NCBI GenBank assembly: GCA_000091205.1
Contig: AP006492.2
DNA from: Cyanidioschyzon merolae
Lineage: Eukaryota
DNA length: 64,000 nt
Reading direction: 5' to 3' (one strand)
The notes under the pieces were generated by a model. The model worked only from the letters and a program-made list of their open reading frames with translations, did no database searches and had not been told where the DNA came from. Position 1 is the stretch's first letter, and each line of letters opens with the position of its first letter. Position numbers and translations under genes: made by a program. Of the stretch, positions 1,433 to 51,306 are shown piece by piece.

Positions 1433-1454
1433 GGCGGGCGGAAAACCGCCCGCC
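1433..1454. other. perfect 9-bp stem / 4-nt loop hairpin (GGCGGGCGG-AAAA-CCGCCCGCC) abutting the stop codon and 3' boundary of Fanzor copy A1
   Basis: Read directly from the sequence. It sits at the edge where identity with copy A2 ends, and the equivalent position in copy A2 (about 22350-22370) is degraded. It is a candidate terminal structure of an omega-RNA or 3' UTR. Confidence 0.6.
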
Positions 1455-1919
1455 CTACACGAAATGTCTCCCACTGACGTGCAGACGCCTCCCAGTCTTT
1501 TTGGACCGGCCGCCTACTAAGGGTTTCAACTTTTTCTCATATAATTCCACCTTGAGAGGTTCTTCCGCGAAATTCTCTCTGGTCAACTCTGGAGGTCTTC
1601 TTTCTATCACCGCGCACCTCCTTATATTGATAGCGGCGTTAAAGTCTTGGTTCACAAACTTCATACGTTTCTTGCTATTGATTGTACTTCCGGATGCACC
1701 TAGTCCAGAAACTTTCGCTTTCCTTCCCATGTGCTCTTCTGTTAGCGCTCCGTACTTTTGTATATCTTCAGGGCTCCTCTGGCACTTTTTCATCCCCATC
1801 CTCTGAAGTGTACATCCCAACTCATCGTGTATAGGCGATTTCCGGAACTCATCGATCGGTATCGTAACGAAACGCCTGCGCACTCCTTGTATGTTCTTGT
1901 TGACGGCGCTGGTTGACAC
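1455..1919 (-). CDS. Fanzor/TnpB-like nuclease, C-terminal segment (RuvC-II, Zn-finger-like region, RuvC-III); frame-disconnected from upstream segment
   Basis: The ORF-track protein contains TIPIDEF (RuvC-II Glu), a Cys/His-containing spacer and VNQDFNAAINIRRCAV (RuvC-III Asp, a TnpB/Cas12 hallmark). The listed start codon is GTG. The frame is open upstream to about 1967 but differs from the 1985-3052 frame. Confidence 0.8.
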   Translation of the reverse strand: MSTSAVNKNIQGVRRRFVTIPIDEFRKSPIHDELGCTLQRMGMKKCQRSPEDIQKYGALTEEHMGRKAKVSGLGASGSTINSKKRMKFVNQDFNAAINIRRCAVIERRPPELTRENFAEEPLKVELYEKKLKPLVGGRSKKTGRRLHVSGRHFV

Positions 1920-1984
1920 GCTTTCTGGGTCATCCAGTGCCCTGATCCATACGCTACTAAAAGCCTCTTACTCTTATCTTCCTT

Positions 1985-3052
1985 TCAGGCGCTCAACTGA
2001 TTGAAGAAATCCGCGGTCGCCCGCTGCTTCCCACAGTATAGATTAACGCGCAGACGAGCCCACCGGGGCTTGGCGTACTCTTTCCACGGCGCTTCCCAGT
2101 CAGCAACACGGACTTTCGTGAATTTCAGAAAAGTTCGAAAGTCCGCTCCTCGGCTCGTCACCTCGCTCATAGCTTCCAGGTGCTCGTTCGCTCCTGCATT
2201 CCATGTCTCAACTTTCTTCCTTGCATTCTTTATGCCCGATTCTCGACAGTATCTTGCTCTCGAGAGCTTGAAAAGACGCATGTCTTTCTGACGCAAGTCA
2301 CCGTCACTGCCATCTTCTGCACGCTTCGGTGCTGCGACGGCTATATTCATCGTGTTTCCGGGGTCCACGCCGACGACAAAGTCACTCTCATGCACCTCCT
2401 GCGTCGCAGGATCCGCCTCTTTCTTTTCTTCGTGCTTCGTCAGGGGCGAAGCCGAAGGCACGATAGGACGATCCGCCTTCAACCGCCGACAGTGTGCACA
2501 CATGGACACTCCATCGGTTTCGATCGTGCCCGTGAATACCCTCTGCTTGCTCACTTTGCGACGTTTGAAATAGAAGATATTCTTCCAGTACGTCTCCCGG
2601 CTTTCACCGGTGAACTCCGTCTTCCTTCCATCGAACTGCGGACAGGTCTCCTCCATGACGCCGTAGAGGACTCTGGAGTCGATAATCACATAGTGCGACT
2701 TGATGCTGCACAGCGGAGCGACGTAGAAGCGCTTACCCAGAAGCGCGGCCTTCTGTCGCTCCGGCTCTTCATTTGCTTTCTGACTCGGCTCCATCTCCGC
2801 CTTGCGCTCGAGTTTTCGGTTCAGGAATCCGAAATAGCGCACAATGGGGCGATAACATCTTTCTTCATCTCTTTTCATATCTGGTACCTTTTCCGCTCGA
2901 TTCGCCAGCGCCAAGACTGCACGGTGCTCTTGAATAGCCGCACGGATTACAGAAGCTTCACTCAGGCACCGGCGTGACGTCTTCATGTCGACAAATTCGA
3001 TCTCCTGTACGTTCTGGCGATCGTTCGTGATGCCGTCGATGATGGCCCACAT
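1985..3052 (-). CDS. Fanzor/TnpB-like nuclease, central segment (WED/REC-like N-region and RuvC-I)
   Basis: 355-aa ORF with [19 protein letters not shown] (RuvC-I Asp) about 140 aa before its end, plus an upstream CxxC. It is 98% identical at the protein level to 22895-23962. Its frame is open upstream to about 3180 and overlaps the 2983-3252 ORF in the -1 frame. Confidence 0.75.
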
Positions 3053-3252
3053 CGCGCGGCGAGAGAGGCCGGGGGGTCCAGCGCAAACATGGCGCGTATC
3101 ATGAAGCGTTCGAGGTTCACGATCATATCGTTCTTCAGGTGCGTGAGGTGCTTGACTGCCCCGCTGGTGTAAACACGCAAGTCACCCCTGTATCGAGTAA
3201 CGTTGAAGCGGTATTCAGCATCATTTTTCATGCCGGGCATCCACTCGCTCAT
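2983..3252 (-). CDS. putative N-terminal segment of the Fanzor/TnpB-like protein (out of frame with the central segment)
   Basis: 89-aa ORF starting [21 protein letters not shown], reminiscent of the TnpB N-terminal k-a-y-k-f-R-l-Y-P region. It overlaps the next frame across 2986-3180, which contains a C6/G6 homopolymer at about 3071-3076. Adding one nucleotide there would fuse the frames (..[19 protein letters not shown]..). Confidence 0.4.
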   Translation of the reverse strand: MSEWMPGMKNDAEYRFNVTRYRGDLRVYTSGAVKHLTHLKNDMIVNLERFMIRAMFALDPPASLAARCGPSSTASRTIARTYRRSNLST

Positions 3253-3929
3253 TTCGCCGCGACGTTTCCCCTATAGCAAGCATGAGGTGACGAGTAAAGG
3301 TCTTGTAGAAGGCACGTTCCGAAACCTCAGCTGTTTCCAAGTGCGTCACGTCGCGATACATCTCCCTCGTCATATGCATCGGTCCTCAAGAAGCCTTGCA
3401 AACACTCCCGGAGTTCGACTCGGCACGGTTTCTGATGGCATCTCGCAACTTTTCCCCGTGCGGAGCAGTAGTATGCTTAAGAAGACAGGCTCTCACCACC
3501 ATCTCGTCGTATCGCCGTCTTTCTTGCAGCCTTTATTGTCGGACCTCCCGCTTTTGCTCCTTCGTCCTCTCCTGTTCTTCTGAACTCGGCACCGTTTTTT
3601 GTTTTTTCTCTGCCGGCTGTCGACGCTGTGCCCCCTGGATCCTCCATTTCCTTTTCCATGACTTTCCTTTTTTACATGTTTGGAAATGAGACTTCTTTGA
3701 ACGCTTCTGCTACAAACCGCGAAAAATCACTTGAAAACAGTTACTTGAGGGTTAGTACACAACTGAGGTGAAGGACTGTACTCTGCTACGACTACAACGC
3801 AAATACGACCTGTACGGTAGAGTAACAAGAAAACGATTAGGAAAGATCGCGTTTCCCTTCAACGGCGAGATGCGCGTCGTATCTGCTGGCTACCAGGCAT
3901 GGAGGTGGGCGTATCGAGCGCATTATTTA

Positions 3930-4570
3930 GAACAAAGAACAGAGACTAACAACTTACTAGCAACGATATAACGATTTCTATCCCCATCTACGATGAACAT
4001 TAAAAGGGGAAAACTTTCCGTATCTTCGGAAGTTTAACTTATGGGTGGAGGGTCCCGCAAGCCGGACTAGTCGTCAAGGCTAGTGCTTCGTGCTCTCCCT
4101 CGTGGAAGGCGCCATGATGAGAGCTGCACAGGTCGTCCAAAACGCAGTTTTTTCTGGGACTCGGAGAATGTATGCTGCGTCTGGGCACCGCCCCAGGTAG
4201 TAGTGGGCTTCTAGTATATCGCTTCGCGCTCTCGCAGGCAGAAGGCCTGCCTGCCCAGTTTCCAGGCTCCCGGAATGATAATCAGCCCTGAATCCGGGTC
4301 AAATGTACCATTCTTCGAGACGACGCCTTCACTGGTATGGCAAATCCGTTCTGTCGCTGTGCAGCATGCGCTCCAGCGGTTTAGGCGCTACGACGTGTGC
4401 TCAGTGTAGACACTCGGCGCACGATAGAGCATATGAAACGACCAGTATATCCGCGAGTAAGCTTGAGAAATGGAACTTGAAGATAGGTGCAGCATGATGG
4501 ACGCTTTCGCGAATGCCATCATCCATCCACTCCGAAATCTCGGATTTGTGGTCAATGTACACGCGTACCA
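3930..4570. repeat. paralogous segment X1 (~650 bp), adjacent to the 5' side of Fanzor copy A1
   Basis: About 70-75% similar to 27000-27650 (for example ..aaaggggaaaactttccgtatcttcggaagttt..gcaagccggactagtc.. versus ..aaaggggaaagatttctgtagtttcgaaagttt..gcgagccggacgagtc..). Minus-strand ORFs 4401-4697 and 27414-27668 share ..FKFH..LL.D.LVV.Y..SCA... Confidence 0.5.
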
Positions 4571-8190: not shown

Positions 8191-8362
8191 CGATACGCGG
8201 TACCGGAATCAAGATGATTACCGATATGGTCCAACAAGGGCGTCCCTGGAATCAACGATCCCGTTACTTAATGGATACGCGGTACCGGAATCAAGATGAT
8301 TATCGATATGGTCCAACAAGGGCGTCCCTGAAAGCATCGATCCCGTTACTTAATGGATACGC
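8191..8362. repeat. 82-bp tandem duplication (about 2.1 units)
   Basis: gatacgcggtaccggaatcaagatgatta[c/t]cgatatggtccaacaagggcgtccctg..cgatcccgttacttaatg is repeated head-to-tail with 3-4 mismatches. Confidence 0.85.
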
Positions 8363-10181
8363 ACAAGCCTGTACGCTTCTCCTCAACGTATGAGTACCAT
8401 GCTCGAATAAAGTATGCTTCAGGTTTTCGATTTCTCTCTCTGTGCGTGTGTGTGTGTGTCAAGGCAACTCGTGAGCGCACCTATTCCGTCCATTGGATTG
8501 CCGACGGGAAAGCGCCGCGACGTCGTCCCTGCACGACTTGCTTACGAGCGCCCGCCCGAAACTCACTACATGCTTCACGTCAATAACCGATTCCATTCGC
8601 AAGACAAATCATGCTTTCGTTCAAACCAACGATGAAACGTCATCCGATGCCAGCACCATCCCTCTTGCGGGATACGCTCCGCGACGCTCCCGACTCTTCT
8701 GCGTGCCCGGCAACGAGTTTCGCGCTCAAAGGGGCGTCATCGCCGCGGCCCCTTCCAGTGGAGCATGCGTCGCAACTTTACACGAAGGAGGCGTACACGG
8801 ACCGGAATTTACCAAGTGGTTCCCCCAGCCTGCATATCCCTCCCGGTACTTGTCTGTTCATGGAGAGCACCGGGCCCCAAAAAGCATCCACCGAGCTGGA
8901 CAGCGTGCGCTTGCGTACACAGCGGACAGCGAACTCGACGAGGTGATCGCCCAGAGCAAGCGCGTCCTCTTCGAACACGGCACCGGGCATGGAATCGGAG
9001 GCGGACCCTTAGGGAAGCCTACCTATAGCGCTCCATCGCATGTGCGGGGCGATGTGTCAGGCCTTGAGGCGCGGTACTCCAGCGCTCTTAGGCGCAAATG
9101 CAGTGTGTCGATGCGAAAACGTGGCCACAGCCAGTTGTCACCGATGCGAATGACGCTCTGTGGCGGTGTACAAACATAGATGAGCGCTGGAAGCGAAGCG
9201 TGGACTGCATCCACCGCCTGCGCATGACATGCGTGGACAACAGCCAGATGCATCGAACTCGAGACTTGAACGCTTATAGGAACGTCCGCCGATCTCCGGC
9301 AACCGAGGTCGACGGACCGGAGAGGCCGGTGTATCTAAAGCCGGCGCCTAGAGAGAAAGACGGCGAAAAAGCAGTCCCAACGCCAGTCGCGAACAGCTGG
9401 CGTTGATGACCCTGGGATGACACTCCTCCGTAGCTTTAGAGTACGCGCTCGTATTCGTGGACTTGTTTCATACTGCTCGGGCATGGATAAAGAGCGCCTA
9501 GCGATCTCATCGACTTCATCGATCCTGAATCAAAACGAAATGCACACGTTCGGCTGCTTCGATCAGCGAGAACGCGTCGTCGCATCACATGGTCGGGACA
9601 TCGCTGCGGCAAAGACCTGCACACGAAAGCGGAACGCCCCAAAGACATCTTCAGAAGCGAATGTCTGTTTTTACGCAGTATGCAACGATCACATGGCGTA
9701 GTGCCAAGCTCCTGGACTTCGTTTCGTACGTGATGAGCGCGTACACCCCAGGAAATCCCGTTTTAACCGCTTGTTTATCTGAACCTATGACCCAGAGTTA
9801 GAGCGAGCAACATGACTGTGCGTGAAAGACTGCAAAAATTTCCCAGATAAAGTACCAGGTTCATGATTGGATTCATTGCCCGCGGGATGATGACACACCC
9901 AGATTTGCCCGAGATCCAATCTCATAGAAAGCGCACTCGCGAGGAACAGGCTCCAGCTACCACCGCCGCAGCACCGCAACATCCAGCACATGACCAGCGC
10001 AAGCGTGTCGCTCGCACAGAGCGTTCGAGCTCGGTTTCACATCCCGAGCTGGCCTACTCGCAAATATGACGCAAGCCGTTCGTCGTGATGTCGTCGGGTG
10101 CTCGAGTCCCTGGGCATCGTGAGTGCTCCAGCATCGTCCAGTATGAATGGCTCGGTCAGCGTGGTCATCGGCGACGAAGCG

Positions 10182-15196: not shown

Positions 15197-16639
15197 CTAC
15201 GGGGCTAGAGCATGGCCACGCATCAGGGATCCTATCGTGCGGAAGAGCAACTTGACGTCCTCAACTGGGCTCGTGCGCGTAACCTTCTTGTAAAGATACG
15301 AATCAAAGGTCACCTGTTGGACGTAGTCATCGCCGCAGAGTTCACAAAACGCCTCCCGAGCGGCATTGTTCGTGTAGAACACTTTCTGCAGGATATCAAG
15401 CACTGTATACGTTGGTCCATACTGGCGATCGTACGGCCGGAGGTAGCCATTGCGCAGGTCCTGCTCCGTGGGTATGCGGCTTCCGTTCAAGCTCGCGCGT
15501 ACGATCGCTTCGCCACACATGCGTCCGCTCTTCGCAGCGAAGTAGATACCCTCGCCGGAGCACTTGGTTACGTAGCCGGCCGCGTCACCGACGAGGGCAA
15601 CCCGGCCGACCACGCGACGCGGCCGCGGATGCTCCGGGATCGGATGCGCCTCTACTTTGATCACTTTGCCACCAGCGATCTTCGGTGCTGCTCGCTGGCG
15701 AATGCCTTCCTTGTAGCGTTTGATGTTGGGCTTGTCGATTACCGTTCCGGTCCCGACACCAACGTGGTCGTACTTTGGAAAAACCCAGGCATAAAAATCT
15801 GGTGACACATCATCTCCGACATACATTTCCGCGAGATCTTCATAGAACGCCATCTTGTCGTCGGGAATTTTGATTCGCTCCTGGAAAGCAATCGCATAGC
15901 TGTAGTCGCCAGCGTCGATTGCCTTGGCGACCCGAGAGTTGGCACCGTCTGCCCCGACGACCATGTCGACTTCGAGAGAGCTTGTGGTGGCCCTGCCCCC
16001 GTCGATCTTATCGTAGTCTGCGTACTTGATTCGGTACTTGCCGCGGGGATCGCGCGGATCCGGAAGCTCTACCTCCTGAACGAGCCCGTGCACACGAATC
16101 GCTCCAAGTTCATAAGCGCGCTCTCGCAGATAGCTATCCAGAATCTCGCGACGTGTCATACCGATGTACTCATGAGGTTTGAGCGTTCGACCAACCGGAA
16201 TCTCACGTCCCGAGGGCGAAACCATGAGCATGCGCCGAACCTTCCGGTCAATGATGTCGGGCGGTAAGCCAAACTCATCCACCATACACAGCGGGATAGC
16301 ACCCCCGCAGGGCTTACAGTTATCCATCTTTCGCTCTATGAGAAAAGTCTCAATCTCTGGGCACCTGGCGAGCGCCTCCGCCGCGCACGCCCCGGCGGGT
16401 CCACCACCTACAACAGCAACACGAAACTTTGCTTGAAGGAAGGGTACGCGGCGGATGCATGGGCGGTGAACACGACGGGGAGCAAGCGGGCGCGCGCTTG
16501 AAGCGCCCCAGAACTGGGCGGGCGCGCTCACAAAAGTGACAGACGGTTTCGAGGTTGCCATTTTACGCTTCTTCAAACGGAGCAGATGACTTGCGATGCG
16601 CAGAAACTTCTTGACTTGACCGTCAATTGGGCGTCGCAC
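15197..16639 (-). CDS. chlP: geranylgeranyl diphosphate reductase (ChlP), plastid-targeted
   Basis: FAD-binding VAVVGGGPAGACAAEALA, then ..CGGAIPLCMVDEFGLP.., ..GMTRREILDSYLRERA.. and ..GDAAGYVTKCSGEGIYFA.. conserved across the whole length. The first in-frame ATG (MATSKP..) is at about 16561, since the ORF-track start is GTG. The gene is a single exon. Confidence 0.9.
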   Translation of the reverse strand: MRRPIDGQVKKFLRIASHLLRLKKRKMATSKPSVTFVSAPAQFWGASSARPLAPRRVHRPCIRRVPFLQAKFRVAVVGGGPAGACAAEALARCPEIETFLIERKMDNCKPCGGAIPLCMVDEFGLPPDIIDRKVRRMLMVSPSGREIPVGRTLKPHEYIGMTRREILDSYLRERAYELGAIRVHGLVQEVELPDPRDPRGKYRIKYADYDKIDGGRATTSSLEVDMVVGADGANSRVAKAIDAGDYSYAIAFQERIKIPDDKMAFYEDLAEMYVGDDVSPDFYAWVFPKYDHVGVGTGTVIDKPNIKRYKEGIRQRAAPKIAGGKVIKVEAHPIPEHPRPRRVVGRVALVGDAAGYVTKCSGEGIYFAAKSGRMCGEAIVRASLNGSRIPTEQDLRNGYLRPYDRQYGPTYTVLDILQKVFYTNNAAREAFCELCGDDYVQQVTFDSYLYKKVTRTSPVEDVKLLFRTIGSLMRGHALAP

Positions 16640-16716: not shown

Positions 16717-17089
16717 CAACAGAGCAGCACGCGTGTAGCAGCAACGACGCGTTCGTGCAGTCCGTAAATCCGATGCTTTCACGATCCGCTGGAATGCGGC
16801 GTGGTGCAGCGCGCTCGCGGGATCGCACCCCGAGATCCTTTCAGCTCGACGCCGGTGCGTCGGGCTATCTTCCATAATTGGACAAAACCTTCCTAAAAGA
16901 TCAGGGATCCCCAACGGTGCGCGGTGAAGCACCGATCATACCACGCCCTATCTCCAAGGTCCATGGTCCATAATTCTTCTCGGATACATTGGTCACTTTG
17001 TACGTTCTATCGTGTGCCGCGTATCTGCATTCCTGCATCGGTGATCGCGCCTATAGCGCCGTTACGGTCATAGCAGAGAGACAGGACGA

Positions 17090-18440
17090 CGTTGGCGTAC
17101 CCCAGAGGACGTCGGCTCGAGATGGTAAACTGATACCCAGGCGCAGATGCCTCTCAGCCTTTTTTGACCGTCAGACTGCCATCAATTTCAGTTTATTCAG
17201 GCACGCTTCGAGACTGTGAGGCTGCACGAAGCAAGAGGATCGCGCTAGCCCCGAGGGTCTCGTCTCCAGCACCGCACATCATTTGATATTGATAGCGGCG
17301 TTGAAGACTCGGTTCACGAACTCCATGCATGTATTGCCTCTGGTGGTGCTCGCCAATGGAAGGAGTCCTCAAACTAGTGCCCTCAGTGCCATTTGCTGCT
17401 CTGTCAGCTCTCCGTGCTTTTCTATCGTCGAAATGCTCCGCTGCATTCTCCCCATCCCGATCTTTGAATGGTACATCCCAGCTCATCCCTCAGACTTTTT
17501 TGAAAATGAACGCAATTCTTCATGCCATTAGGTGAGGATCTTCCCTAATGGAGAAGGATTCGTTCAAGGAAGATGTAATGTGCCACAGTGTGTCACTGTG
17601 TGCTGGGCGATTCAGCGATTCGGCCAGTGGAGCGGTCGATAATTTCCATGATAGAAAACACTTCTTCAGTGGGGTACAACAACGGAACGTACTACGGAAT
17701 GAAAAGCAGCTCTACCCAGATAGAATCGGCAAATGCTCGATCCCTGGGGAATATTGAAATACCATGTTGTTCAATAGAAGGACGTCTCAATACGTTAGGG
17801 AAACCCTTCAATAATTCGATAAAGTGGTTGGTGCTGTTGTATGCGCCTTTATTACGAGCGATAGCGAGGCCATCAAATGAATGCCCTGCAGCTAGAATAG
17901 ATGATGATGTCCTCGTCTTCTTCGATTTCGATCGTACATACATTGGGCCTCCTTTCCGAGAATACCAATATATGCTCCCACCGTTTCATCCGAAGCAAGC
18001 CTCATCGACTGAGGAAACAAACCAAAGTGCCTGTGCTTCATACCGATCGCGACGTCCCAGGAAAGCTGTGGTAGCGATTTCCGTAGACGATGGCCGTGCG
18101 TGAAACTGGATTTTTTGCCTGTTTCCAAGCTTTTACAGGACCAGATGAACAAGATGTCGAGCAACTGAGACGCCTGTGGCAAATGATACCGACAATTTCT
18201 CTTTCCATACGGTGATCAACGGGTCGCATTCTTCCATTGTCCATAAGCAGTCTTCGAGAATATCGGTTGTTTGCCGCAGAGTGCATATGCTTCTTTGTTT
18301 CAGTGTTCCTCAACCATCGGAGTACTTTGGTATAACTGACTTGAAGGAGAAACACAGTACTCGTTGCACTGTTCAATAAAGAATATATCCCACCGGCAAT
18401 TCGTCTACGATCTATACGGTACATTGCATCGTGATGTCGA
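17090..18440 (-). mobile_element. degenerate chimeric element B1: Fanzor 3' module (about 17090-17490) fused to an unrelated ~0.95-kb segment Y
   Basis: The minus strand at about 17283-17325 encodes MEFVNRVFNAAINI, a RuvC-III motif with the Asp replaced by Val. The plus-strand mirror ORF 17283-17531 parallels the mirror ORF of copy A1. About 17090-18440 is roughly 75% identical to 49855-51210. Confidence 0.55.
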
Positions 18441-19307
18441 TCTCCTGCTACACACCCCAGCAGGTCTCCAGCAAATTGGGTTGGAAGACTAGACGAAGTG
18501 TACGCGGTGCTTTCATTGAGATTTTGCATGTTGCATCTGCGAGACAGGTATTCACTGGAGAGCGCAGTGCAACGAAACCTTGGGTTTCGCCGAAACTCCA
18601 GCGAAGACCGGGTACCATGTTTCGAGAGGACGCCTGGGAGTCCTGTGGTCGCGTGAGCAGGAACAGCTCGCCGGTCTGCTGTTGCTTTCGCAAACGTTTG
18701 GAAAACGGAATCGCGGGTGATCGGAAAGCCATGATTTTGGGCGAAGCAGGTTTTACGAGTTCAGTGCGTCCAGTAATCCAGCCACGGCGGTTGTGAGGAC
18801 CTGCCGCAACCCGCTCTGTTGTGGCAGCTATGACATAGACTTGGTGCCCACACTGTTCAGCAGCGTCTGGTGCATGATCCTGGCCAAAGCTCGCACGTGT
18901 CAGCGTTTCCGCCGAGGGCCATAGACGCTCGTGTCGCCAGCGTTTTCAGAGACAGTGTTCCGAGCGTTCGCGTGGCCTTACCTCGCAACCGAAAGGAAGC
19001 GTTTGTCTCCTAGAGTTCGGAATGCTGTTGTCTAAGGTGCGGCGTTTCAGAGTCAGAACACGGACGCGACGCCGCGGATGTTTCGCTGTCCACTCGGCCG
19101 GCTAGGGCGTTCGACGACGGCTCGGTTGCACGCTTGTTCTGAAGCTCTCTGTTTTTCAGCTGCGAGCTTCTTGGAGTTAGGTATCGCCTGCGAGAAGTGG
19201 TGCTTGCCTGAGGGTTCTTGGATCAGATAGATCGGGGGACGCATGCCGGTGCACTCGATGCAGACGGTGGTATTGAGGCGTTGAGCGCGAGAACGCCCAT
19301 TTTCCCT

Positions 19308-22223: not shown

Positions 22224-22829
22224 TCACCGCCTCGTCTGGAGATGGAGGATGCACTTTAGTATCGAGAATGATGCCGTGCACGCGACCTCGGGTGACACTC
22301 GCGAACGCCGTTCAAAAGTCGAAAGCAGTCGCCAGCGGTTTACAGTAGTGGCGGCGAACGCGCCCAAGACAAAACTTCTCCAACTGACGTGCAGACGCCT
22401 CCCAGCCTTTTTGGACCGGCCGCCTACTAAGGGTTTCAACTTTTTCTCATATAATTCCACCTTGAGAGGTTCTTCCGCGAAATTCTCTCTGGTCAACTCT
22501 GGAGGTCTTCTTTCTATCACCGCGCACCTCCTTACATTGATAGCGGCGTTAAAGTCTTGGTTCACAAACTTCATACGTTTCTTGCTATTGATTGTACTTC
22601 CGGATGCACCTAGTCCAGAAACTTTCGCTTTCCTTCCCATGTGCTCTTCTGTTAGCGCTCCGTACTTTTGTATATCTTCAGGGCTCCTCGGGCACTTTTC
22701 CATCTCCACCCTCTGAAGTGTACATCCCAACTCATCGTGTATAGGCGATTTCCGGAACTCATCGATCGGTATCGTAACGAAACGCCTGCGCACTCCTTGT
22801 ATGTTCTTGTTGACGGCGCTGGTTGACAC
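22224..22829 (-). CDS. Fanzor/TnpB-like nuclease C-terminal segment (RuvC-II, RuvC-III), copy A2
   Basis: Carries the same TIPIDEF and VNQDFNAAINVRR motifs. Its C-terminus reads through into flanking DNA because the stop codon present in copy A1 is absent here. Confidence 0.75.
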   Translation of the reverse strand: MSTSAVNKNIQGVRRRFVTIPIDEFRKSPIHDELGCTLQRVEMEKCPRSPEDIQKYGALTEEHMGRKAKVSGLGASGSTINSKKRMKFVNQDFNAAINVRRCAVIERRPPELTRENFAEEPLKVELYEKKLKPLVGGRSKKAGRRLHVSWRSFVLGAFAATTVNRWRLLSTFERRSRVSPEVACTASFSILKCILHLQTRR

Positions 22830-22894
22830 GCTTTCTGGGTCATCCAGTGCCCTGATCCATACGCTACTAAAAGCCTCTTACTCTTATCTTCCTT

Positions 22895-23962
22895 TCAGGC
22901 GCTCAACTGATTGAAGAAATCCGCGGTCGCCCGCTGCTTCCCACAGTATAGATTAACGCGCAGACGAGCCCACCGGGGCTTGGCGTACTCTTTCCACGGC
23001 GCTTCCCAGTCAGCAACACGGACTTTCGTGAATTTCAGAAAAGTTCGAAAGTCCGCTCCTCGGCTCGTCACCTCGCTCATAGCTTCCAGGTGCTCGTTCG
23101 CTCCTGCATTCCATGTCTCAACTTTCTTCCTTGCATTCATTATGCCCGATTCTCGACAGTATCTTGCTCTCGAGAGCTTGAAAAGACGCATGTCTTTCTG
23201 ACGCAAGTCACCGTCACTGCCATCTTCTGCACGCTTCGGTGCTGCGACGGCTATATTCATCGTGTTTCCGGGGTCCACGCCAACGACAAAGTCACTCTCA
23301 TGCACGTTCTGTGTGGCAGGATCCGCCTCCTTCTCATCTTCATGCTTCGTCACGGGCGAAGCCGAAGGCACGATAGGACGATCCGCCTTCAACCGCCGAC
23401 AGTGTGCACACATGGACACTCCATCGGTTTCGATCGTGCCCGTGAATACCCTCTGCTTGCTCACTTTGCGACGTTTGAAATAGAAGATATTCTTCCAGTA
23501 CGTCTCCCGGCTTTCACCGGTGAACTCCGTCTTCCTTCCATCGAACTGCGGACAGGTCTCCTCCATGACGCCGTAGAGGACTCTGGAGTCGATAATCACA
23601 TAGTGCGACTTGATGCTGCACAGCGGAGCGACGTAGAAGCGCTTACCCAGAAGCGCGGCCTTCTGTCGCTCCGGCTCTTCATTTGCTTTCTGACTCGGCT
23701 CCATCTCCGCCTTGCGCTCGAGTTTTCGGTTCAGGAATCCGAAATAGCGCACAATGGGGCGATAACATCTTTCTTCATCTCTTTTCATATCTGGTACCTT
23801 TTCCGCTCGATTCGCCAGCGCCAAGACTGCACGGTGCTCTTGAATAGCCGCGCGGATTACAGAAGCTTCATTCAGGCACCGGCGTGACGTCTTCTTGTCG
23901 ACAAATTCGATCTCCTGTACGTTCTGGCGATCGTTCGTGATGCCGTCGATGATGGCCCACAT
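22895..23962 (-). CDS. Fanzor/TnpB-like nuclease central segment (RuvC-I), copy A2
   Basis: 355 aa, [17 protein letters not shown], near-identical to 1985-3052. Confidence 0.75.
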
Positions 23963-24162
23963 CGCGCGGCGAGAGAGGCCGGGGGGTCCAGCGCAAACAT
24001 GGCGCGTATCATGAAGCGTTCGAGGTTCACGATCATATCGTTCTTCAGGTGCGTGAGGTGCTTGACTGCCCCGCTGGTGTAAACACGCAAGTCACCCCTG
24101 TATCGAGTAACGTTGAAGCGGTATGCAGCATCATTTTTCATGCCGGGCATCCACTCGCTCAT
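23872..24162 (-). CDS. putative N-terminal segment of Fanzor/TnpB-like protein, copy A2 (frameshifted relative to central segment)
   Basis: Near-identical to the 2983-3252 ORF and overlaps the next frame in the same way. Confidence 0.4.
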
Positions 24163-24946
24163 TTCGCCGCGACGTTTCCCCTATAGCAAGCATGAGGTGA
24201 CGAGTAAAGGTCTTGTAGAAGGCACGTTCCGAAACCTCAGCTGTTTCCAAGTGCGTCACGTCGCGATACATCTCCCTCGTCATATGCATCGGTCCTCAAG
24301 AAGCCTTGCAAACACTCCCGGAGTTCGACTCGGCACGGTTTCTGATGGCATCTCGCAACTTTTCCCCGTGCGGAGCAGTAGTATGCTTAAGAAGACAGGC
24401 TCTCACCACCATCTCGTCGTATCGCCGTCTTTCTTGCAGCCTTTATTGTCGGACCTCCCGCTTTTGCTCCTTCGTCCTCTCCTGTTCTTCTGAACTCGGC
24501 ACCGTTTTTTGTTTTTTCTCTGCCGGCTGTCGACGCTGTGCCCCCAGGATCCTCCATTTCCTTTTCCATGACTTTCCTTTTTTACATATTTGGAAATGAG
24601 ACTTCTTTGACCGCTTCTGCTACAAACCGCGAAAAATCACTTGAAAACAGTTACTTGAGGGTTAGTACACAACTGAGGTGAAGGACTGTACTCTGCTACG
24701 ACTGCAACGCAAATACGACCTGTACGGTAGAGCAACAAGAAAACGATTAGGAAAGATCGCGTTTCCCTTCAACGGCGAGATGCGCGTCCCGTCTCATGCC
24801 CGCCAGGTATCCCGGGTGCGCCTAGAGTGCGCGCCGCGTGCGCCACCGCAAGCGTTACAAATCGAAACACGCGCCGCAGCGCCAACGAACGCGCCATGCT
24901 TCATGCTTAGCGTTTTCGGGGGCTCACGTACTAGACGCCGCACAGT

Positions 24947-26236
24947 GTGATACCCGAGGCGCTCCGCTGCTGGTGGCGACTGTTTTTGGACAATAAACCG
25001 CACCGGGTCATGGATGCTGAACCGCAGCTCACCGCTGGGTCAGCAGAAACAGCATCAGCCTGCACTGCGTGCAACTCGTATGAAGCACAAATAAGAGAGA
25101 AGCGGCTTCGGAATCAGCGCCTTCTCGAGTCGCTCGGGATCGCGCAAAGTCGCGCTGTACTCCTCGGCAAGGCTGCGGGGAAGCGCAGCGAATCACTGAC
25201 CATTGGTGAGGACGCTGATCGCCCACAGAAACGAGGGCGGCGCGCTCGAAGCATCGCCGCCAACGCTGTGGCGCTACAGCTTTCCGTTCAGACGCGCAGT
25301 CTGCGCAGACGCTGCTCGCAAACGGAAACGAACGCCGCGGTGGATCCACTCACAACAGTCTCAGTGAATGCTTCGTCCGAGCGCGATGCCGATTCGAATC
25401 TGCTTCATGGTTTCCTCTCCATGCGGGCAAGCGAGAAATCGCCTCCATCTCTAGGAAGGTATGCATTTTGGGAGCCAATATATGACCCTAGAAATGATGA
25501 CGCGAGCTCCATAGCGGAAACCGAAAACCACTCCGCTGTGAAGGATCACTCGGGTCGACTGTTCGTTTTATCGAAGAAGCGAGTCGTCTCTGTGCGGCCC
25601 AATGAAGCTGGCAAGACGGCGCCGAAACAGACTCCTGCCGATCTGCGTGCTGAAAAGCGCCGCGCGTTCGAAAGTCGCTTCTGCGCGGATCTACCCCGCG
25701 AGCCGGCACCGTACGCCCTGCGTCGACTGCTGAACCATCATAGCATTGCTGCCTTCTGTTGCGGTACCGTCGCCGTGCCGTTCACACTTCGCTCCATTGG
25801 TGTTACCGTTCGGAGCTTAGGTCAGCTCGTGATTCGTCCGGATGATCCATTGGTGGAGCGAAAGTGGTTCTCGTCGCGCCTGGCTATGTACGCACATCCG
25901 TTTCCAACAGGTTATCATGCGACGAAAACGCACTGGAACCGGCTCTGGCATATGCACATCGAATCCGACCCGAATGGAGGCGGTCCCTTTTTCATCGTCA
26001 AAAGTGATGACGGTCGCGAGACCTACCGACGCCATACGCCATCGCATGCCTGGATGGACGCATGCCTCCATAGTCATGCGCCTGGGACGCGAATCAGCGG
26101 ACCCTTGTTTTTCGGATTCAGTGACCCGTGGCTGCAAACCGTAATCCAAACTCAATTAGTAGCTGATGCAGAGAAATCCGGGATGTTTCGGGATTCATCG
26201 ACCGCTTCTGAATGCATACTCGGCATGAAACGCTGA
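24947..26236 (+). CDS. hypothetical protein (429 aa) immediately flanking Fanzor copy A2
   Basis: Long ORF with no recognised domain. The start codon is uncertain; an internal ATG (MDAEPQL..) lies at about 25010. Confidence 0.35.
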   Translation: MIPEALRCWWRLFLDNKPHRVMDAEPQLTAGSAETASACTACNSYEAQIREKRLRNQRLLESLGIAQSRAVLLGKAAGKRSESLTIGEDADRPQKRGRRARSIAANAVALQLSVQTRSLRRRCSQTETNAAVDPLTTVSVNASSERDADSNLLHGFLSMRASEKSPPSLGRYAFWEPIYDPRNDDASSIAETENHSAVKDHSGRLFVLSKKRVVSVRPNEAGKTAPKQTPADLRAEKRRAFESRFCADLPREPAPYALRRLLNHHSIAAFCCGTVAVPFTLRSIGVTVRSLGQLVIRPDDPLVERKWFSSRLAMYAHPFPTGYHATKTHWNRLWHMHIESDPNGGGPFFIVKSDDGRETYRRHTPSHAWMDACLHSHAPGTRISGPLFFGFSDPWLQTVIQTQLVADAEKSGMFRDSSTASECILGMKR

Positions 26237-26999
26237 TGATCAATACCGAGAACCTGGGCATTGCTTCTGCACCCGATTCAGAATACTATAGATCGGATCG
26301 ATGTATCTGGCTCGGGTGTGCACGCTAAAGGTTGGGACTCGTCCTAATGCCATGGACACAAGGCGTTGCGAACTCTTTCTGCGACATCGAGCTCTTGCTC
26401 TACGCTCTCTCCGGCTCTAAAAAACGCCAGTTGCTGCTCCTTATCCAGCTCCGTTGTCACCTATCGGTGCGTGTTGATAGCAACGCCCAAGTCCCGAACT
26501 CGCTGTGTACGAATGTTGTCGATGCATTTGATGTAGAGTCGGCAGTTACGATCTACATGACACTGACTATTTTTCGTCTTTTTTTTTGTATACAGCCCTG
26601 ATGCGCCTTTCGCAGCGGTGACACTCGTTTGTGATCAAGAGTTCCCGAACGTCCACTGTATTTCGTCCTTCGTGCACCGAATTGTGGCACCTAAAAGCTC
26701 GCTGTGTCGCTCGATACATGCACTTCACGGGTACGGAAGGGTTTAGTCAACGTCCTCCTCCGTTTCCACGCCTGGTGACACGCCCTGGGATCCAGGGCTT
26801 CTGCTAGGCGATCCCCTTTGGCAAGTACGCTGCCCACTGCAAGTGCAAGCACATGATGCTCTGCTCGATTGATGATTTTTGGGACTTGGCGTTGTCCACG
26901 ATCAAAAAGGTACCGGGCCCAGAATCCAAGCCGGAGAACAATTCGAGAAACCTCGGTCCATCCGCGCTCCTCTCGAACAAAGCGCTTACACACGCTCCA

Positions 27000-27650
27000 T
27001 CGTAATCTATCGAAAGAACAGAAATCAAAAACTGATTAGCAACAAGATAAGAAATGCTTTCCACCTCTACGATAACCGTTGAAAGGGGAAAGATTTCTGT
27101 AGTTTCGAAAGTTTGGCTTCTAGGCGCAAGGTCATGCGAGCCGGACGAGTCTGCGGGGCTAGCGTTTCATGCTTCCCCCAGCGGCACTCGCTGAGGCGAC
27201 ATCAGATCAGCACATCCGCAACGCCGTTCATTCTGGCATCACAAGTCGTTGGAATGCGTCTGGGCGTCGCCCTGGTCGCAGTGGCTTCCTAGCATTCCGC
27301 TTAGTGTCGCCACAGGCAGTAAGTCGATCTGCGGAGCTTGCAAGCCCCCATAATGATTATGTTACTCGGACCCCGTGTCGAATGAACCACGTCTCGAGTC
27401 GACGCCCTCAGTGTCATGGCAAAGCCGTTCTGTCTCCGTGCTGCATCCGCACGATCAGTATTGAGGCGCTCCTACGGGTGCTCATGGCAAGTTTGGCGCA
27501 CGATGGAACGTACAGAACGACCAGTACATCCGAGAGCAGGTCATGGAACTTGAAGGTGCTGTTCAGCGTGATGGACGCTTTCCCGAATGTCAATTTCCAT
27601 CCCGCAATCTGGGATCCATGGTATATGTACTGAACCTGTAAAACCAAAAA
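27000..27650. repeat. paralogous segment X2, directly upstream of the diverged 1.28-kb repeat partial copy
   Basis: See X1 for the similarity evidence. Confidence 0.5.
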
Positions 27651-27659
27651 GACTGGAAT

Positions 27660-28250
27660 CAGTCGCAACGATGACTCAAACCCGATTCCATGATCTTTCT
27701 ACATGCGAACAGAAGAAATGGGAGCCGCTGGAGACGTATCTCATAAACGGTACCATGGTACTGTCGAATCAAGTTCCTTCAACCACCAAAACCAGAGGAG
27801 GATTTATCTTTCGAGCTGACTCAGTTATTTCAAATAACCACTTTGGTAAAGTTTCTGCGTGAGCTCAAGAAGAGGCCATCAAAGGACGACATCCGATTTC
27901 TTTCCTCGTCTATCCAGGATCGCGTATGGCTTCGCCCACCAGTTGCCTTGAAACAAAAAGGTCGACAAATGAATGAATCCGACATTTGAGCACACTACAC
28001 ATATGGTAAGGAGAAGAACGGAGGCTTGCACGTATGCATTGGATAATATCATTGATTATTTTTCGAAAAACTGTACGAGTCCATCGAGAATCATCTCAAC
28101 TCCACTGACGTAAAGAAATCCATCGGCGACTCGTCGAAGCAGGCACTCTCCGAAATCACAACCGAGAATCCGAAACCCAGGGATGCAATCGAAATCCCGG
28201 ATCGCTGCAACACGCATCTCCATGCTGTACATCTTGCGAACAACTTAGAA
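27660..28250. repeat. diverged partial copy (3' half) of the 1.28-kb repeat
   Basis: About 70-75% nucleotide similarity to 31540-32000 (for example ..gcattggataat.., ..cgagaatcatctcaactccactgacgtaaagaaat..). ORF 27587-27862 ends ..VLSNQVPSTTKTRGGFIFRADSV.., matching the repeat ORF ..VLQSNAVASMTAKRGRFVTTRSV... Confidence 0.55.
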
Positions 28251-28279
28251 TGAATTGAACGATTATACCAGAGCAGCCG

Positions 28280-34101: not shown

Positions 34102-34499
34102 GTGCGCGCACGCGTACGCCTCCTCCGACGTACACGCTCAGACACGCTCATATACGCAGGTCATTCCGTATTCTGGGCGCTGTGCAGTGCGCTACCGGGC
34201 GCATCAGCATCAGCGTCGTCGTCAGCGGCGGCGGCGGCGGGGGGATCGGGAGCTGGGCAAACATCGCCGTCGATGCGTGCTCGCCAGCGCCATCTACCAT
34301 GCGCGTGTCGGATCGATGATTAGCGTTTGTCACCTGAGCTGTGTTCCACCTCCGGGAGCATGTACGCAAATGGCTTTTCGCGTTGTATAGCAAAAATGTT
34401 CGATATTCGTTCATTTTGACGAGACAAAAATCCAACGGAAACGTATGGACATGGTCGTCGGCGATCCTGGAGGCCTGTCATCACCGGCTACCTGAAAGA

Positions 34500-34885
34500 G
34501 AAACGTAAAAACCCTCTTCTCGTTGAACATCGAGCGAATGAAGAGCAGGTTTCGATGAGGAAGAAGAGCGGATATAGGCGAGAGAGAGCGTTTAGCCTGC
34601 GGGAAGATGACGAGACTTTAGTGCCACAGAGTGCGCGAGTTCTTGGAATCCTCGCATTGATGCGCCTTACTAGAGGCAATACACGCGTTGAGTTTGTGAA
34701 TCGAGACTTTCATGCTGCTACCTGTATCAGATGATGTTTGGTGCTGGAGACGAAATCCGAGGCGCTGGGGCGAGCCAACTTCGTGAAATAGTCTCGCAGG
34801 GTCGAAGTATCGAAGGAGAAGCTGAAATCCATAGCGGGCGGCCGGTCCAAGAAGGCTGGGAGGCGACTGCAGGTGTGGTATTCAT
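34500..34885 (+). pseudogene. degenerate 3'-terminal fragment of a Fanzor-A-like gene (RuvC-II remnant through C-terminus), opposite orientation to the full copies
   Basis: Plus-strand translations align with the copy A1 C-terminus across frame breaks: ..LNIERM.. (compare IPIDEF), ..RVEFVNRDFHAA.. (RuvC-III) and ..EKLKSIAGGRSKKAGRRLQV.. (compare KKLKPLVGGRSKKTGRRLHV). It has internal stops and is about 70-75% identical at the nucleotide level. Confidence 0.6.
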
Positions 34886-36702
34886 TTACCCTAAATAGTC
34901 GTGGGATATTTCCACTCCGCTGACTTGCATGCATGAGGCGGGGCTTTCCTGGTACGCGTCCAGATTTCTGCACCATTCCTCGAGGGTCCACCAGTCATCA
35001 CCTCCAGGCGTGCATCCAATCGGAGATACTGGTTCGACTGCGCGATCCACTTGATGTCGAGTGCCTGTCGTAAGCGCTCGCTCCGACGCATATAGCGCCC
35101 CATCGGACAACGTACAGAAACAGAACAACTCTGCGATACGCTTGTGGATGTTGGCTGCATGCGTGGTTCACCATCGCAATTCAGTGCCGGGCAATGTACG
35201 CACTCACGGCGGTTGCCGCGAGCTGGCACTCATCTAGGCGCCCCATACCAGTCCTGCCTTCACATATCGACTGTGGCGGTGACGCATCTCGCGTTGCTGC
35301 GAGCGTTCATGGCAAGCACGGTATCCGACACGTCGCTGGGTGGATCTAAGATCGATCCCCAACAGATAGACTGGACTGGACGGGAGTTGCTGAAATGTAG
35401 ATGCGTCTCGGAAGGAGCGGCGTTTTCTTCGTTCATTGCCGATAAAACGCGTGCACCTAGGGGAATCTTCCCAGATTCAGCTATTTCATACCATAAAAAT
35501 ATGCGCGTCCATGGATCCATGCGTGGATGGCGATAAACTCGCGACTTGTCGCGAGCGCAACATCGACGACCTGAGCGCGGCCTACGACGCATTCAGAACG
35601 GGAACAAAGATAGCCGCCATGCAGACCTCCGCTGTATCAGACTCTGCACCACGAGACGCTCTGCAGCGCGAAAGCCGCTGCGTCCTTGCCAGCGAACGCA
35701 AACGCAAGCCTAGCCTTTACGACAAATGGGCTGCGAGAGCGCGAGAGAGATATGCCAATATCGCACGCGGACCGCAGAGGGATTCGGGCCCAGATCCAAT
35801 AATGTTGACCTCCAGCGGAACGCGGATGTGGTGATTGCAAGGACGTGTCTGCCATTGACGAGAACTCCGGGCATGCTCCGTGCCCGGGCGGCAGTTTCTC
35901 TTCCCGTTCTGCGAGCAACAGACGATAATCCCATCTCCGGTTGTATGCATCCCAGCGCCCCGGTTACCCGGGTATTCAAGGTCCCTGCTAAGAGTCCGGT
36001 GAGCAGCTTTAGGCACGGCGCTTCTGTAATACCGACGATTGATTCTCGTGCCATCACGTGATGCCTTGGAAAAGATGTTCACGGCGGAGGATAGCTCCGG
36101 ATTCTCCTGCGCTAATGTCGCGAAAACGCAGGTTTGCATATACCAGTTCGCCAACAGGCGAACAGTAGACCCCACGACGCAAGCTAGTCCAAGCCTGTTC
36201 GCAGACATTGTGAGCACGTCGCACGTCTGTTTACGAAACTACCAAACTCGCCGACACTGTTCAGAGACTGCTCTCGACTTGTCAATGCCCAATGCTCCAC
36301 AAGCTCACGCAAATCCCATCAAGATCATCAAAAGACCTTCACGCGCATCGCAATACCATCCGCGGCAACGATGGTGCTCCGAATCATCATCAGAGCGCGT
36401 TGTTGCGAAGCAGGTACCAGCATGTCCATGGCTCTCTAGAGCTCAGCACACGTCCCGCACGAGAAGCCGCGTCTCGCGAGGACCAAAGTCGCTTCCAGTA
36501 CCAGTGCGATGGTGTTGACGGCCATGCAAGGCTCCACCCAAAGGCAGCCCTACCTTGTCGCAACAACGCCGAGGTCGTATCGAGGTCGCTATACTGCGCC
36601 AAATCTCCACAGCGACCTGCACTCGTGCCTACAGCTTCCGTTTTTCGTTGCCATGCTGATCATGCATCTAGAAACCTCGTCGATTGTTTGCGTTTCGTAT
36701 TG

Positions 36703-49854: not shown

Positions 49855-51210
49855 AACTATAGACGGTGACTATAACGGAAAACGTTCTACGGTCATGGAG
49901 GATAAACTGGTATCCCTTCACGGGCACCCCGCACCAGCCTTTTCTTGACCGGCCACCTGCCATCGTTTTTAGTTTCTCCTTGCACACGTCGAGCCGGAGC
50001 GCGTGCTCTGTGAAGTTGGATCGCGTCAGCTACGCAGGCCTCTCTTTCAGCACTGCACATTTTTCTGACACTGAGGGCGGCGTTGAAGTCACGGTTCACG
50101 AGCTCCATGTGATTATCGACAATGATGGAAGTCGTCAGTGCAAGTATTGCCAGAACTTTTCCCCTCTGTGCCGTATGCTGCTCTGTCAGAACCCCGTTCC
50201 TTTCTATCGCCGAAGCGCTCCGTTGCGTTTTCCATCTCAACCTTTTGATTCTTTATTTTTGAAAATGAACGTATTTTTATGCCCTGTTTGAGGACCTTGT
50301 TGGAGGGATTAGAACTTTCGGAAGGAAGACGAAAGATGCACTGGTTTTACCGTGTGCTGAACGCTTCAGCGATTCGCCCAGTACAGCGATCAATTCTTTT
50401 CAGGATTGCAAAGACACCTGCAATGGAGTTCAACCACGGAGCGTGCTGCGGCATGAAAAGCAGCTCTACGCGGTAGAATCGAAAAAAGCTCGAACTCAAC
50501 GGGAATAGTCAAATGCCACGTTGTCCAGTAGGAGGATATCGCCACCGGTCTGGGGAGACCCTTCAATGATTCGACAAAGTGGGTGCTGTTTTATGATCCT
50601 TGTCTCAAGCGAAACTGAGGCCGCCAAATCATTCCACTGCAGCTAGAAAAGATGATGATGTCCTCGTTCTCTTCTACATCGATTGTACCCACAACTTGCT
50701 CCCTGCTCGGCGAATACTCATGTACGCTCCGACCGTTTCGTCGGATGCAAGTCTCATCGACTCAAAGAACAGACCGACGTCGCCGTGCTCCCTACAGATC
50801 GCCGAGTTCCAGAAAGTTTTTCATGGGTGCCGTTTCGGTGGAAGATGGCCGTGCGTGAACTAGAAGTTTTATTGGGACTGTCTCCCAGTGTTTCCCGGAC
50901 AACACGAACAAACTTTAGAGAAACAGAGCTGCTCGTAGTTGCAACAATCGTCGCTTTTGCTTTCCTTTTGGTGATCAACGAGTCGTTTTCTACCATTGAT
51001 CGCAAGCACGCTTTGAGAATACCAGTTTTGACGCAGAGCGCATCCACTTGTTTCTTTCAGTGTTCTGCAACCATCTGAGTACTGTGGTATGATTGATCTG
51101 GACGAGGAATGCAGTCCTCGTTGCACTGTTCAGTAAAGAATATACCGTATTGGCAATTCGTCTACGACCTATACAGTACCTTGCATATTGATGTCGATCT
51201 CCTGGTATAT
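49855..51210 (-). mobile_element. degenerate chimeric element B2: Fanzor 3' module plus Y segment
   Basis: Collinear homology with 17090-18440 across both the Fanzor-derived part and the Y part. The conserved GGCCGGTCAAGAAAAGG core lies at about 49940-49960 on the minus strand. Confidence 0.55.
49893..50240 (-). pseudogene. truncated Fanzor/TnpB-like ORF retaining Zn-finger-like region and RuvC-III (VNRDFNAALSVRKM), lacking RuvC-I/II
   Basis: The ORF-track protein aligns with the copy A1 C-terminal segment (..YGALTEEHMGRKAKVSG.. to NGVLTEQHTAQRGKVLA.., VNQDFNAAINI to VNRDFNAALSV). The homologous upstream sequence is replaced by segment Y. Confidence 0.6.
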
Positions 51211-51306
51211 ATTGCACCGGGAGTGTACAAAAATTAACGTGAAAAACTATACCATTCGAAGATCACACACTTCCTACCAACAACCCGGGAAACGCATACA
51301 CTGAAG

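Follow-up and report, generated by a model that had tools for sequence, protein, structure and literature searches.

Fanzor1 families and their transposase partners

CMe-1A is a Fanzor1 family of Cyanidioschyzon merolae, with a length of 3169 bp and about 150 copies that are about 80% identical to the consensus (Bao and Jurka 2013, PMC3627910). It has no terminal inverted repeats (TIRs), its class is listed as unknown and no transposase is reported for it, and its first 635 bp are a separate repeat called TE-N2_CMe (PMC3627910). There are also elements in which a Mariner transposase and a Fanzor1 are found together, namely PUl-1 and PUl-2 from Pythium ultimum and PGv-1 (PMC3627910), and autonomous associations of Mariner/Tc1 and Fanzor have been reported by Jiang et al. 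(PMC10530073). Here we describe two decayed repeats, B1 and B2, in a stretch of 64,000 nucleotides from C. merolae (contig AP006492.2 of assembly GCA_000091205.1), which is called the window in the following. In each of them the 3' end of a CMe-1 Fanzor1 is joined to a segment, Y, that is by its sequence a nearly full-length and now dead DDE transposase gene of the IS630/Tc1-mariner type, lying on the same strand as the Fanzor tail. It is likely, with a probability of roughly 0.7, that B1 and B2 are the fossils of a family of composite DNA transposons, dispersed in the genome of a Cyanidioschyzon-like red alga and composed of such a transposase gene and a Fanzor1 3' end. The combination of transposase and Fanzor is a known kind of association, here found in a red alga; no description of a chimera between a transposase and a Fanzor tail was found in the literature.

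The B copies resemble CMe-1A and TE-N2 in several ways. Their tails are CMe-1A 2737-3084, their 3' terminus resembles the inverted TE-N2 5' terminus, and the family is old and diverged, with no TIRs and no target-site duplications (TSDs) found. They differ in that CMe-1A positions 1-~850 and ~899-2745 are missing, and in their place there is an IS630-type transposase gene and a 5' end of their own. The likeness to PUl-1-type composites is one of gene order, with a DDE_3-type transposase gene upstream of Fanzor1 on the same strand and in one mobile unit. However, PUl-1 has a complete Fanzor1 open reading frame (ORF), 24-bp TIRs and TA duplications, whereas of the Fanzor codons B has no more than the last ~110-140, and neither a TIR nor a TA TSD was detected in it. 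In the case of bacterial IS630, the consensus of Y passes the NCBIfam IS630 equivalog cutoff (120 bits) and has the same layout of a helix-turn-helix (HTH) and a DDE part, but the B copies are located in a eukaryotic nuclear genome and are joined to Fanzor sequence, again with no TIR or TA TSD detected. Internal-deletion derivatives, known from DNA transposons and from TnpB/Fanzor, are a last group for comparison. Here the B family has two deletion variants with common ends, and another element in the window, referred to as C, is a classic case. The difference is that B1 and B2 lost the Fanzor nuclease, while the transposase gene remained.

The Fanzor1-derived part of B1 and B2

When the published CMe-1A consensus (supplement of PMC3627910) is mapped onto the window by blastn, two long copies are found, both on the minus strand. 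A1 (1437..4563) is a full-length CMe-1A Fanzor1 element (CMe 12-3125, 82.9%), including an upstream TE-N2 part of 627 bp (3934-4560). A2 (22306..24834) is the CMe-1A core (647-3169) without TE-N2, and is 98.7% identical to A1 over 2428 bp. The two share one in-frame stop and at least two frameshifts, and on these grounds A1 is a pseudogene. A solo TE-N2, also on the minus strand, runs from 27629 to 27013 in the same mapping. After correction of the frameshifts, the translation of the long copy has 88 relatives, nearly all of them from hot-spring-type metagenomes, and a profile built from the intact relatives matches the Fanzor1 structures of Parasitella (9cf0, E 1e-18) and Spizellomyces (SpuFz1, 8gkh, 1.9e-14). 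With these structure-profile matches, the CMe-1 family is a genuine Fanzor1, as also described in PMC3627910. A Pfam scan of the CMe-1 relatives gave no match, although DUF8286 is annotated for them in the database. The CMe-1A consensus also contains a perfect 10-nt inverted match (GACAAAACGT/ACGTTTTGTC; positions 4-24 versus 3087-3107), which places the 5' terminus against a site ~60 nt from the 3' end; it is statistically weak, as 24 of 500 shuffles reach it.

B1 (17155-18450) and B2 (49935-51207) are on the same strand and align in a blastn self-comparison of the window, with 1321 columns and an identity of 71.0% (E 1.2e-170). Multi-copy alignments widen the limits slightly, to 17143-18493 and 49870-51251, with approximate ends. 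The genes of both read on the minus strand and the copies are collinear. An earlier, sequence-only reading of the window had described two such collinear copies at ~75% identity, on the same strand as the full copies, and apart from the somewhat lower identity and the wider limits this description is correct. It had also derived the 3' part, with a zinc-finger-like stretch (here degenerate), RuvC-III and a tail, from Fanzor. This agrees with the mapping of CMe-1A and with a tblastn search using the C-terminal 153 aa of a full copy, which matches 17138-17505 (E 1e-21) and 49901-50231 (E 4e-19); the low-coordinate ~350 nt of B1 and B2 are homologous to the C-terminal end of the long repeats at 1451-3878 and 22361-24788.

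In B1, the 5' terminal leader (18425..18493, minus) reads CTAGTCTTCCAACCCAATTTGC, and multi-copy alignments show that homology begins here, the sequence upstream being unrelated. It is followed by Y (17497..18424, minus), with stops and frameshifts, and by the Fanzor1 3' module (17143..17486, minus; CMe-1A 2737-3084, blastn 71.4%, E 3e-52), in which a decayed RuvC-III, FVNRVFNAA, can be translated at 17294-17320. B2 has its leader at 51179..51251 (minus; TATAGTTTTTCACGTTAATTTTTGT), its copy of Y at 50256..51178 (minus), where LLLDNVAF and FMPQHAPWLNSIAGVF are retained, and its Fanzor1 3' module at 49934..50248 (minus; CMe-1A 2756-3073, blastn E 7e-36). The 3' terminus of B2 (49870..49933, minus) ends in ~30 nt, CCATGACCGTAGAACGTTTTCCGTTATAG, that are similar to the 5' terminus of TE-N2/CMe-1A when the latter is reverse-complemented. 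An open ORF of 115 aa is present in B2 (49893-50240, minus), containing LVNRDFNAALSV with an intact LVNRDFNAA at 50076-50102; the counterpart in B1 reads FVNRVFNAAINI and is interrupted by many stops. The translations bear out that B2 still has the catalytic Asp (NRDFNAA), while the stop-ridden B1 has lost it (NRVFNAA). The RuvC active site is incomplete in both, as only the RuvC-III region is present and no RuvC-I/II part was found inside either B1 or B2.

Segment Y, a decayed transposase gene

On the minus strand, Y starts with an HTH-like N-terminus and continues with VDE(A/T)C, LLLDNVAF and PxxxPxLNxIExVF. Single copies give weak to moderate family matches; their raw translations match families only weakly and have no match in the PDB. 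For B1 the match to Pfam DDE_3 is at 0.026, and that of a stitched translation to the NCBIfam IS630 model NF033545 at 5.5e-4, while the stitched translation of B2 matches NF033545 at 3.5e-11. The classification of Y is based on such stitched translations and on a majority consensus of 15 copies, whose translation was likewise stitched. A protein search with both stitched Y translations found six further decayed relatives. The 15-copy consensus restores most of the ORF, including VDETCFG, LLLDNVVFHH and PPYAPWFNPIEGVF. It matches Pfam DDE_3 at 4.4e-22 (78.9 bits, cutoff 28.6) and NF033545 at 1.3e-34 (120 bits, cutoff 100), covering model positions 14-275 of 299; the matches of its N-terminal HTH are weak (HTH_Tnp_Tc3_2 5e-4, HTH_33 1.3e-3). 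In tblastn searches the family-consensus protein is covered by B1 from aa 1-311 (E 3e-89), and it matches B2 with E 3e-39 and 1e-27. Since Y spans nearly the whole IS630 model and the consensus regains the catalytic motifs, this fits a gene that would have been intact near the time of spread. The copies are indeed chimeric, two modules being joined, as the sequence-only reading had it; Y, which it called unrelated, is a decayed transposase gene.

A dispersed family with a single junction

A scan of metagenomes gave 31 loci. Together with the window, these make up at least 14 distinct paralogous copies with pairwise identities of 66-73% and a star-like relationship, in addition to orthologs of B1 and B2 that are 96-99% identical. 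Y is followed by the Fanzor module on the same strand in every locus with enough sequence (L003, L004, L006, L007 and 11 distinct groups among L014-L044; L007, L008 and L009 are one and the same locus). There is a common 5' boundary motif, (C)TATAGTCTTTCAACTCAATTTTGT, and a common 3' boundary, ...CCATGGCCGTGAAACGTTTTTTGTTTCA(C/T)(T/C)G, and outside both boundaries the conservation drops sharply to background. The host flanks vary between loci and include MOSC, LYR/PET117, DUF760, CDC48 and others. By these sequence comparisons B1 and B2 are members of a dispersed repeat family, whose copies have common boundaries and lie in flanks that are not related. The joining of Y to the 3' module happened a single time, and the chimera then spread as one piece to 14 or more loci, with the same junction between the two in each of the paralogous copies.

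The two copies in the window could also be explained by a segmental duplication, or by an ancient rearranged paralog of a host gene, the latter having been offered by the sequence-only reading as an alternative. All that speaks for this is the pair of copies in the window, which share a strand and lie within 33 kb. The flanks of B1 and B2 are unrelated to each other, though. B1 ends at ~17143 on its 3' side, followed by an inverted TE-N2 fragment to ~16878 and then a geranylgeranyl-reductase-like gene (15197-16639), and on its other side there is an EB1-like gene. B2, with its 3' end at ~49870, is flanked by a repeat called Z and the HslV gene. At least 12 further copies are found in other gene contexts, and both modules are transposon genes. 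One junction, common boundaries and differing neighbours exclude a larger duplication that includes the flanks as well as a one-off local rearrangement, and at least 14 dispersed copies with different flanks exclude an ancient paralog; this explanation is left with next to no probability.

Two deletion variants and element C

The family comes in two variants, for which separate consensuses were made. In variant I (B1, B2, L003, L004, L006, L026, L030, L034), Y and a spacer are followed by CMe ~850-899 and then by CMe ~2745-3092. In variant II (L007, L016, L020, L023, L024, L028), CMe 869-1070 is followed by CMe ~2809-3092, which means that the Fanzor 5' untranslated region (5'UTR), the start codon and ~55 codons are fused to the last ~95 codons. 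The deletion junctions are thus at CMe ~899|2745 in variant I and at CMe ~1070|2809 in variant II, and each variant holds Fanzor sequence that is absent from the other. Both have the same junction of Y to CMe, the same ~110-nt spacer and, within the 5'UTR, the same small insertion TCYAAGG. No signal of Y subfamilies was found between the variants, with one diagnostic column out of 977 and a mean p-distance of 0.32 both within and between groups. Different deletions behind indistinguishable Y segments point to two independent internal deletions of one master, and this suggests, from the two variants only, that a master with a transposase and a complete Fanzor1 existed.

It is possible to think of the chimera as having formed many times, if mini-Fanzor elements prefer insertion sites directly downstream of Y-type transposons, or the other way round. 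Element C could be such a mini-Fanzor, as it is a module of the variant-II type without Y, and pieces of TE-N2 lie beside this kind of 3' terminus in three cases (B1, L007 and C), which hints at a site preference. Against this, the Y-to-CMe junction, the spacer and the TCYAAGG are identical in both variants and in all copies, and the family is star-like with equal divergence in both modules, so that repeated independent juxtaposition is very unlikely.

Element C (34325..34926, plus strand; CMe 790-969 and 2840-3088 by blastn) is an internally deleted CMe-1A. In it, the 5'UTR, the start codon and ~55 codons run directly into the last ~95 codons and the tail, and it reads FVNRDFHAA. Its 3' module is of the variant-II type and its 3' terminus of the B type. 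It is 78% identical to the variant-II consensus over 546 nt, spanning the deletion junction, with CMe-type 5'UTR upstream in place of Y. On the 5'UTR side C fits a deletion derivative of CMe-1A better than B does, since CMe 790-1070 is joined to 2809-3088, while B shares only CMe-1A ~850-899 and 2737-3092 and differs from CMe-1A 3093-3169 in its last ~30-60 nt. B does not retain both CMe-1A termini, as an internal-deletion derivative of CMe-1A would, and the clearest Fanzor internal-deletion derivative in the window, with a 5' leader and a 3' end, is C.

In the variant I consensus, the transposase frame is the same as the Fanzor C-terminal frame, and the two are parted by a single TGA, which is TGT (Cys) in the variant II consensus and a Ser codon in L004. 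The Fanzor-derived frame of variant I is open for ~140 codons to the end of the element. Such an arrangement has a chance of about one in three. A fusion protein of the transposase and the Fanzor C-terminus may once have been made.

On the minus strand, a copy consists of a short 5' leader, a once full-length transposase gene (Y), some tens of bases from the CMe-1 Fanzor 5'UTR and the final ~350 nt of a CMe-1 Fanzor1 with its conserved tail, and its end mirrors the 5' terminus of TE-N2/CMe-1A. Under the composite-transposon reading, the master would have carried the transposase gene and then a complete Fanzor1 gene, in the order found in PUl-1, and variants I (minus CMe ~899-2745) and II (minus CMe ~1070-2809) would be independent internal deletions in which the transposase and the two ends were left in place. 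Derivatives of DNA transposons often have such internal deletions.

Ends of the family and points against a composite transposon

The 3' terminus of the family consensus is similar to the reverse-complemented 5' terminus of TE-N2/CMe-1A, with a score of 12 compared to 8.0 +/- 1.3 for shuffles, of which 2 in 500 reach it (z ~3). The inverted TE-N2 stretch is long in B1 and L007 (~270 nt; E 6e-26 and 1.5e-28), and most other copies, B2 among them, have a short 3' terminus that resembles the long form after an internal deletion. In B1 this stretch is a TE-N2_CMe fragment (16878..17143, plus strand; the CMe-1A 5' part, ~1-280) that is inverted relative to B1 and abuts its 3' end. The limit of 16878 was read by eye, while blastn maps CMe 60-280 to 16922-17143 (69%, E 6e-26), and the homology between B1 and L007 over this stretch covers 16920-17158. 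The fragment is common to L007 and the orthologs of B1. In shuffle-controlled local alignments, the 5' end of the B consensus has no significant match to its own 3' end or to either end of TE-N2, and a match by eye of an internal stretch of the B 5' part to the TE-N2 5' end failed the same test. TE-N2 5' fragments adjoin a 3' terminus of the B/C type three times, inverted at 16878-17143 (B1) and at 7205-7455 of L007, and direct after element C at 34942-35172. Site preference, nested insertion and recombination are possible causes of this adjacency. The family may have moved by means of its own transposase, with ends of a non-canonical kind, or in trans along with CMe-1A and TE-N2.

Several observations weigh against a composite transposon. 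IS630/Tc1-mariner elements are expected to have TIRs and TA duplications. The family consensus has no TIR, as its 5' 200 nt score 7.5 against the reverse-complemented 3' 200 nt and shuffles 9.1 +/- 1.3; likewise, no terminal pairs came up when B1, B2 and the A copies were searched for inverted repeats. Target-site motifs at the boundaries, which the sequence-only reading had named as something to look for, do not form a consistent TA duplication across the copies, which are ~18% decayed. At this level of decay, TA directly precedes the 5' boundary in several copies, and the 3' flanks mostly begin with A and not with TA. The majority consensus of Y retains one stop and three frame changes. L004 reads through these as an ORF of 255 aa; they may be alignment artefacts, or the gene may already have been dead at the time of spread. 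No copy with a transposase and a full-length Fanzor is found among the 44 loci, so the master is hypothetical, and the variants and element C could stem from recombination with CMe-1A copies, since gene conversion seems to be frequent. Finally, the extra copies are all from metagenome contigs, and their assignment to one lineage is made only via the 96-99% identical orthologs of B1 and B2 in the same samples.

Decay and the question of the guide RNA

All copies have decayed neutrally since their insertion and are now ~18% from the master sequence. In Y the divergence from the consensus at codon positions 1, 2 and 3 is 0.179, 0.181 and 0.177, and in the Fanzor-derived ORF of the tail it is 0.215, 0.219 and 0.215. 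The tail is somewhat more diverged than Y, with ~21.6% versus 17.9% in codon-aligned blocks and per-copy means of ~21.8% versus 18.7% over wider regions. Because each copy drifted neutrally, a comparison of two of them has no coding signature, whereas the consensus does show one. The sequence-only reading had noted similar translations of Y on both strands and concluded that the homology is on the nucleotide level rather than coding; the equal divergence at all three codon positions speaks for neutral decay as the reason.

The guide RNA of Fanzor (fRNA) overlaps the right end of the element (PMC10530073), and for this reason the tail of the B copies probably once encoded an fRNA. RNAalifold on tails of the A, B and L001 types gives a terminal hairpin (columns 151-187) around GGCCGGTC...CTGGGAGGCGTCTGC, with pairs that are invariant or wobble and a covariation term of -1.16 kcal/mol. 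The tail is no better conserved than Y, which gives no indication of selection for a guide RNA after insertion, and there is no sign that the tail was retained for it in these copies.

The sequence-only reading had seen the copies as non-autonomous derivatives that keep just the guide-RNA-encoding end. In a fuller form of this idea, Fanzor derivatives with that 3' end and a passenger, the dead transposase fragment, would have been moved in trans by the machinery that moves CMe-1A and TE-N2. The ~350 nt of the Fanzor 3' end are present in all copies, neither inverted repeats nor consistent target duplications were found, as in CMe-1A and TE-N2 (PMC3627910), and the 3' terminus resembles the inverted TE-N2/CMe-1A 5' terminus, for ~270 nt in B1 and L007. 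The stop and frame changes left in the Y consensus would agree with a passenger, and the tail can be folded with a conserved terminal hairpin. On the other hand, Y is near-complete in comparison with the IS630 model and its catalytic motifs are recovered in the consensus, the family's 5' end has no relation to the ends of CMe-1A and TE-N2, the tail is not better conserved than Y, and the hairpin is almost without compensatory change. This view of the copies is unlikely, although it is the most probable of the alternatives. With the transposase gene kept and the tail not preferentially conserved, the copies have the look of a transposase-plus-Fanzor composite reduced by deletion, and not that of minimal derivatives with only the guide RNA.

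Gene conversion, Z repeats and the genes of the window

Two old repeat pairs in the window contain blocks of 98.7% identity, 1451-3878/22361-24788 (2428 bp, A1/A2) and 30734-31996/55192-56457 (1266 bp, two Z copies), while the similarity is only 60-83% in the outer parts of these pairs and for other members of the families, which suggests that dispersed copies of the repeats have recently undergone gene conversion. In a similar example, L034-L037, which are one B copy, have a tail that is 84% identical to the CMe-1A consensus up to 3168, with a 3' end of the A type, while their Y is the most diverged of all copies; it is probable that this tail was replaced by conversion from a CMe-1A copy.

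Z is a repeat family of ~1.3 kb with five copies, four in the same orientation (30734-32085, 55192-56490, 26405-28255 and 48614-49852) and one inverted (8015-9200). The solo TE-N2 (27013-27629) interrupts one copy, and another directly adjoins the 3' end of B2. Within the inverted copy there is a tandem duplication of ~82 bp (8192-8362, 95.5% identity). The minus strand of Z has stretches that are HTH-like and a 'LIVDNAKSQKS'. A further IS630-like element was considered for Z and not confirmed, as no frame has an NCBIfam match, and tblastn aligns Z with the Y consensus collinearly but weakly (E 0.1 and 1.1).

The window is nuclear DNA with ~55% G+C, from a eukaryote with few introns and a plastid. 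Its genes include IspH/LytB, a geranylgeranyl-reductase-like protein, EB1, HslV and a CNNM-type transporter. The IspH ORF is 86% identical to Cyanidiococcus yangmingshanensis, 73% to Cyanidium caldarium and 100% to one Logan/ENA protein, which places the host among red algae like Cyanidioschyzon and Cyanidiococcus; an exact look-up of one window protein gave no match. Rfam and tRNA scans over the entire window gave no matches. Debris of the CMe-1 type is unusually abundant, and strongly decayed Fanzor1-like remnants are located at ~136-900, 45266-45415 and 27838-27939, all on the plus strand (tblastn E 5e-5 to 0.2); the one near 500-800 translates as LVVAYGNA...IPINEFRASTYAHHEHGCTL. Between A2 and a Z copy there is an ORF of 429 aa (24947-26236, plus strand) without a Pfam match.

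What the fossils mean for red-algal Fanzor1

As the copies are dead and neutral, their value is historical and for annotation. They also call for some caution, since homology on both strands in old repeats is not evidence of a non-coding origin. Eukaryotic transposons of several kinds, Mariner/Tc1 included, are known carriers of Fanzor1 genes. CMe-1A is the only Fanzor1 family described in red algae, and its transposase partner and class were previously unknown. In the fossils, a transposase gene of the IS630/Tc1-mariner type is physically joined to the 3' end of the CMe-1 Fanzor and to the terminal sequence of TE-N2, which makes this type of transposon a candidate carrier, and they show that deletion derivatives can lose the nuclease yet keep the transposase. 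A more speculative idea, and a doubtful one, is that the Y-type transposase served the entire CMe-1A/TE-N2 group of Cyanidiales as the autonomous partner that it lacks. If this were so, red-algal Fanzor1 would have ridden on a transposon of the IS630/Tc1-mariner type with non-canonical ends, and the sequence common to the B 3' end and the TE-N2/CMe-1A 5' end would be the recognition site of the transposase.

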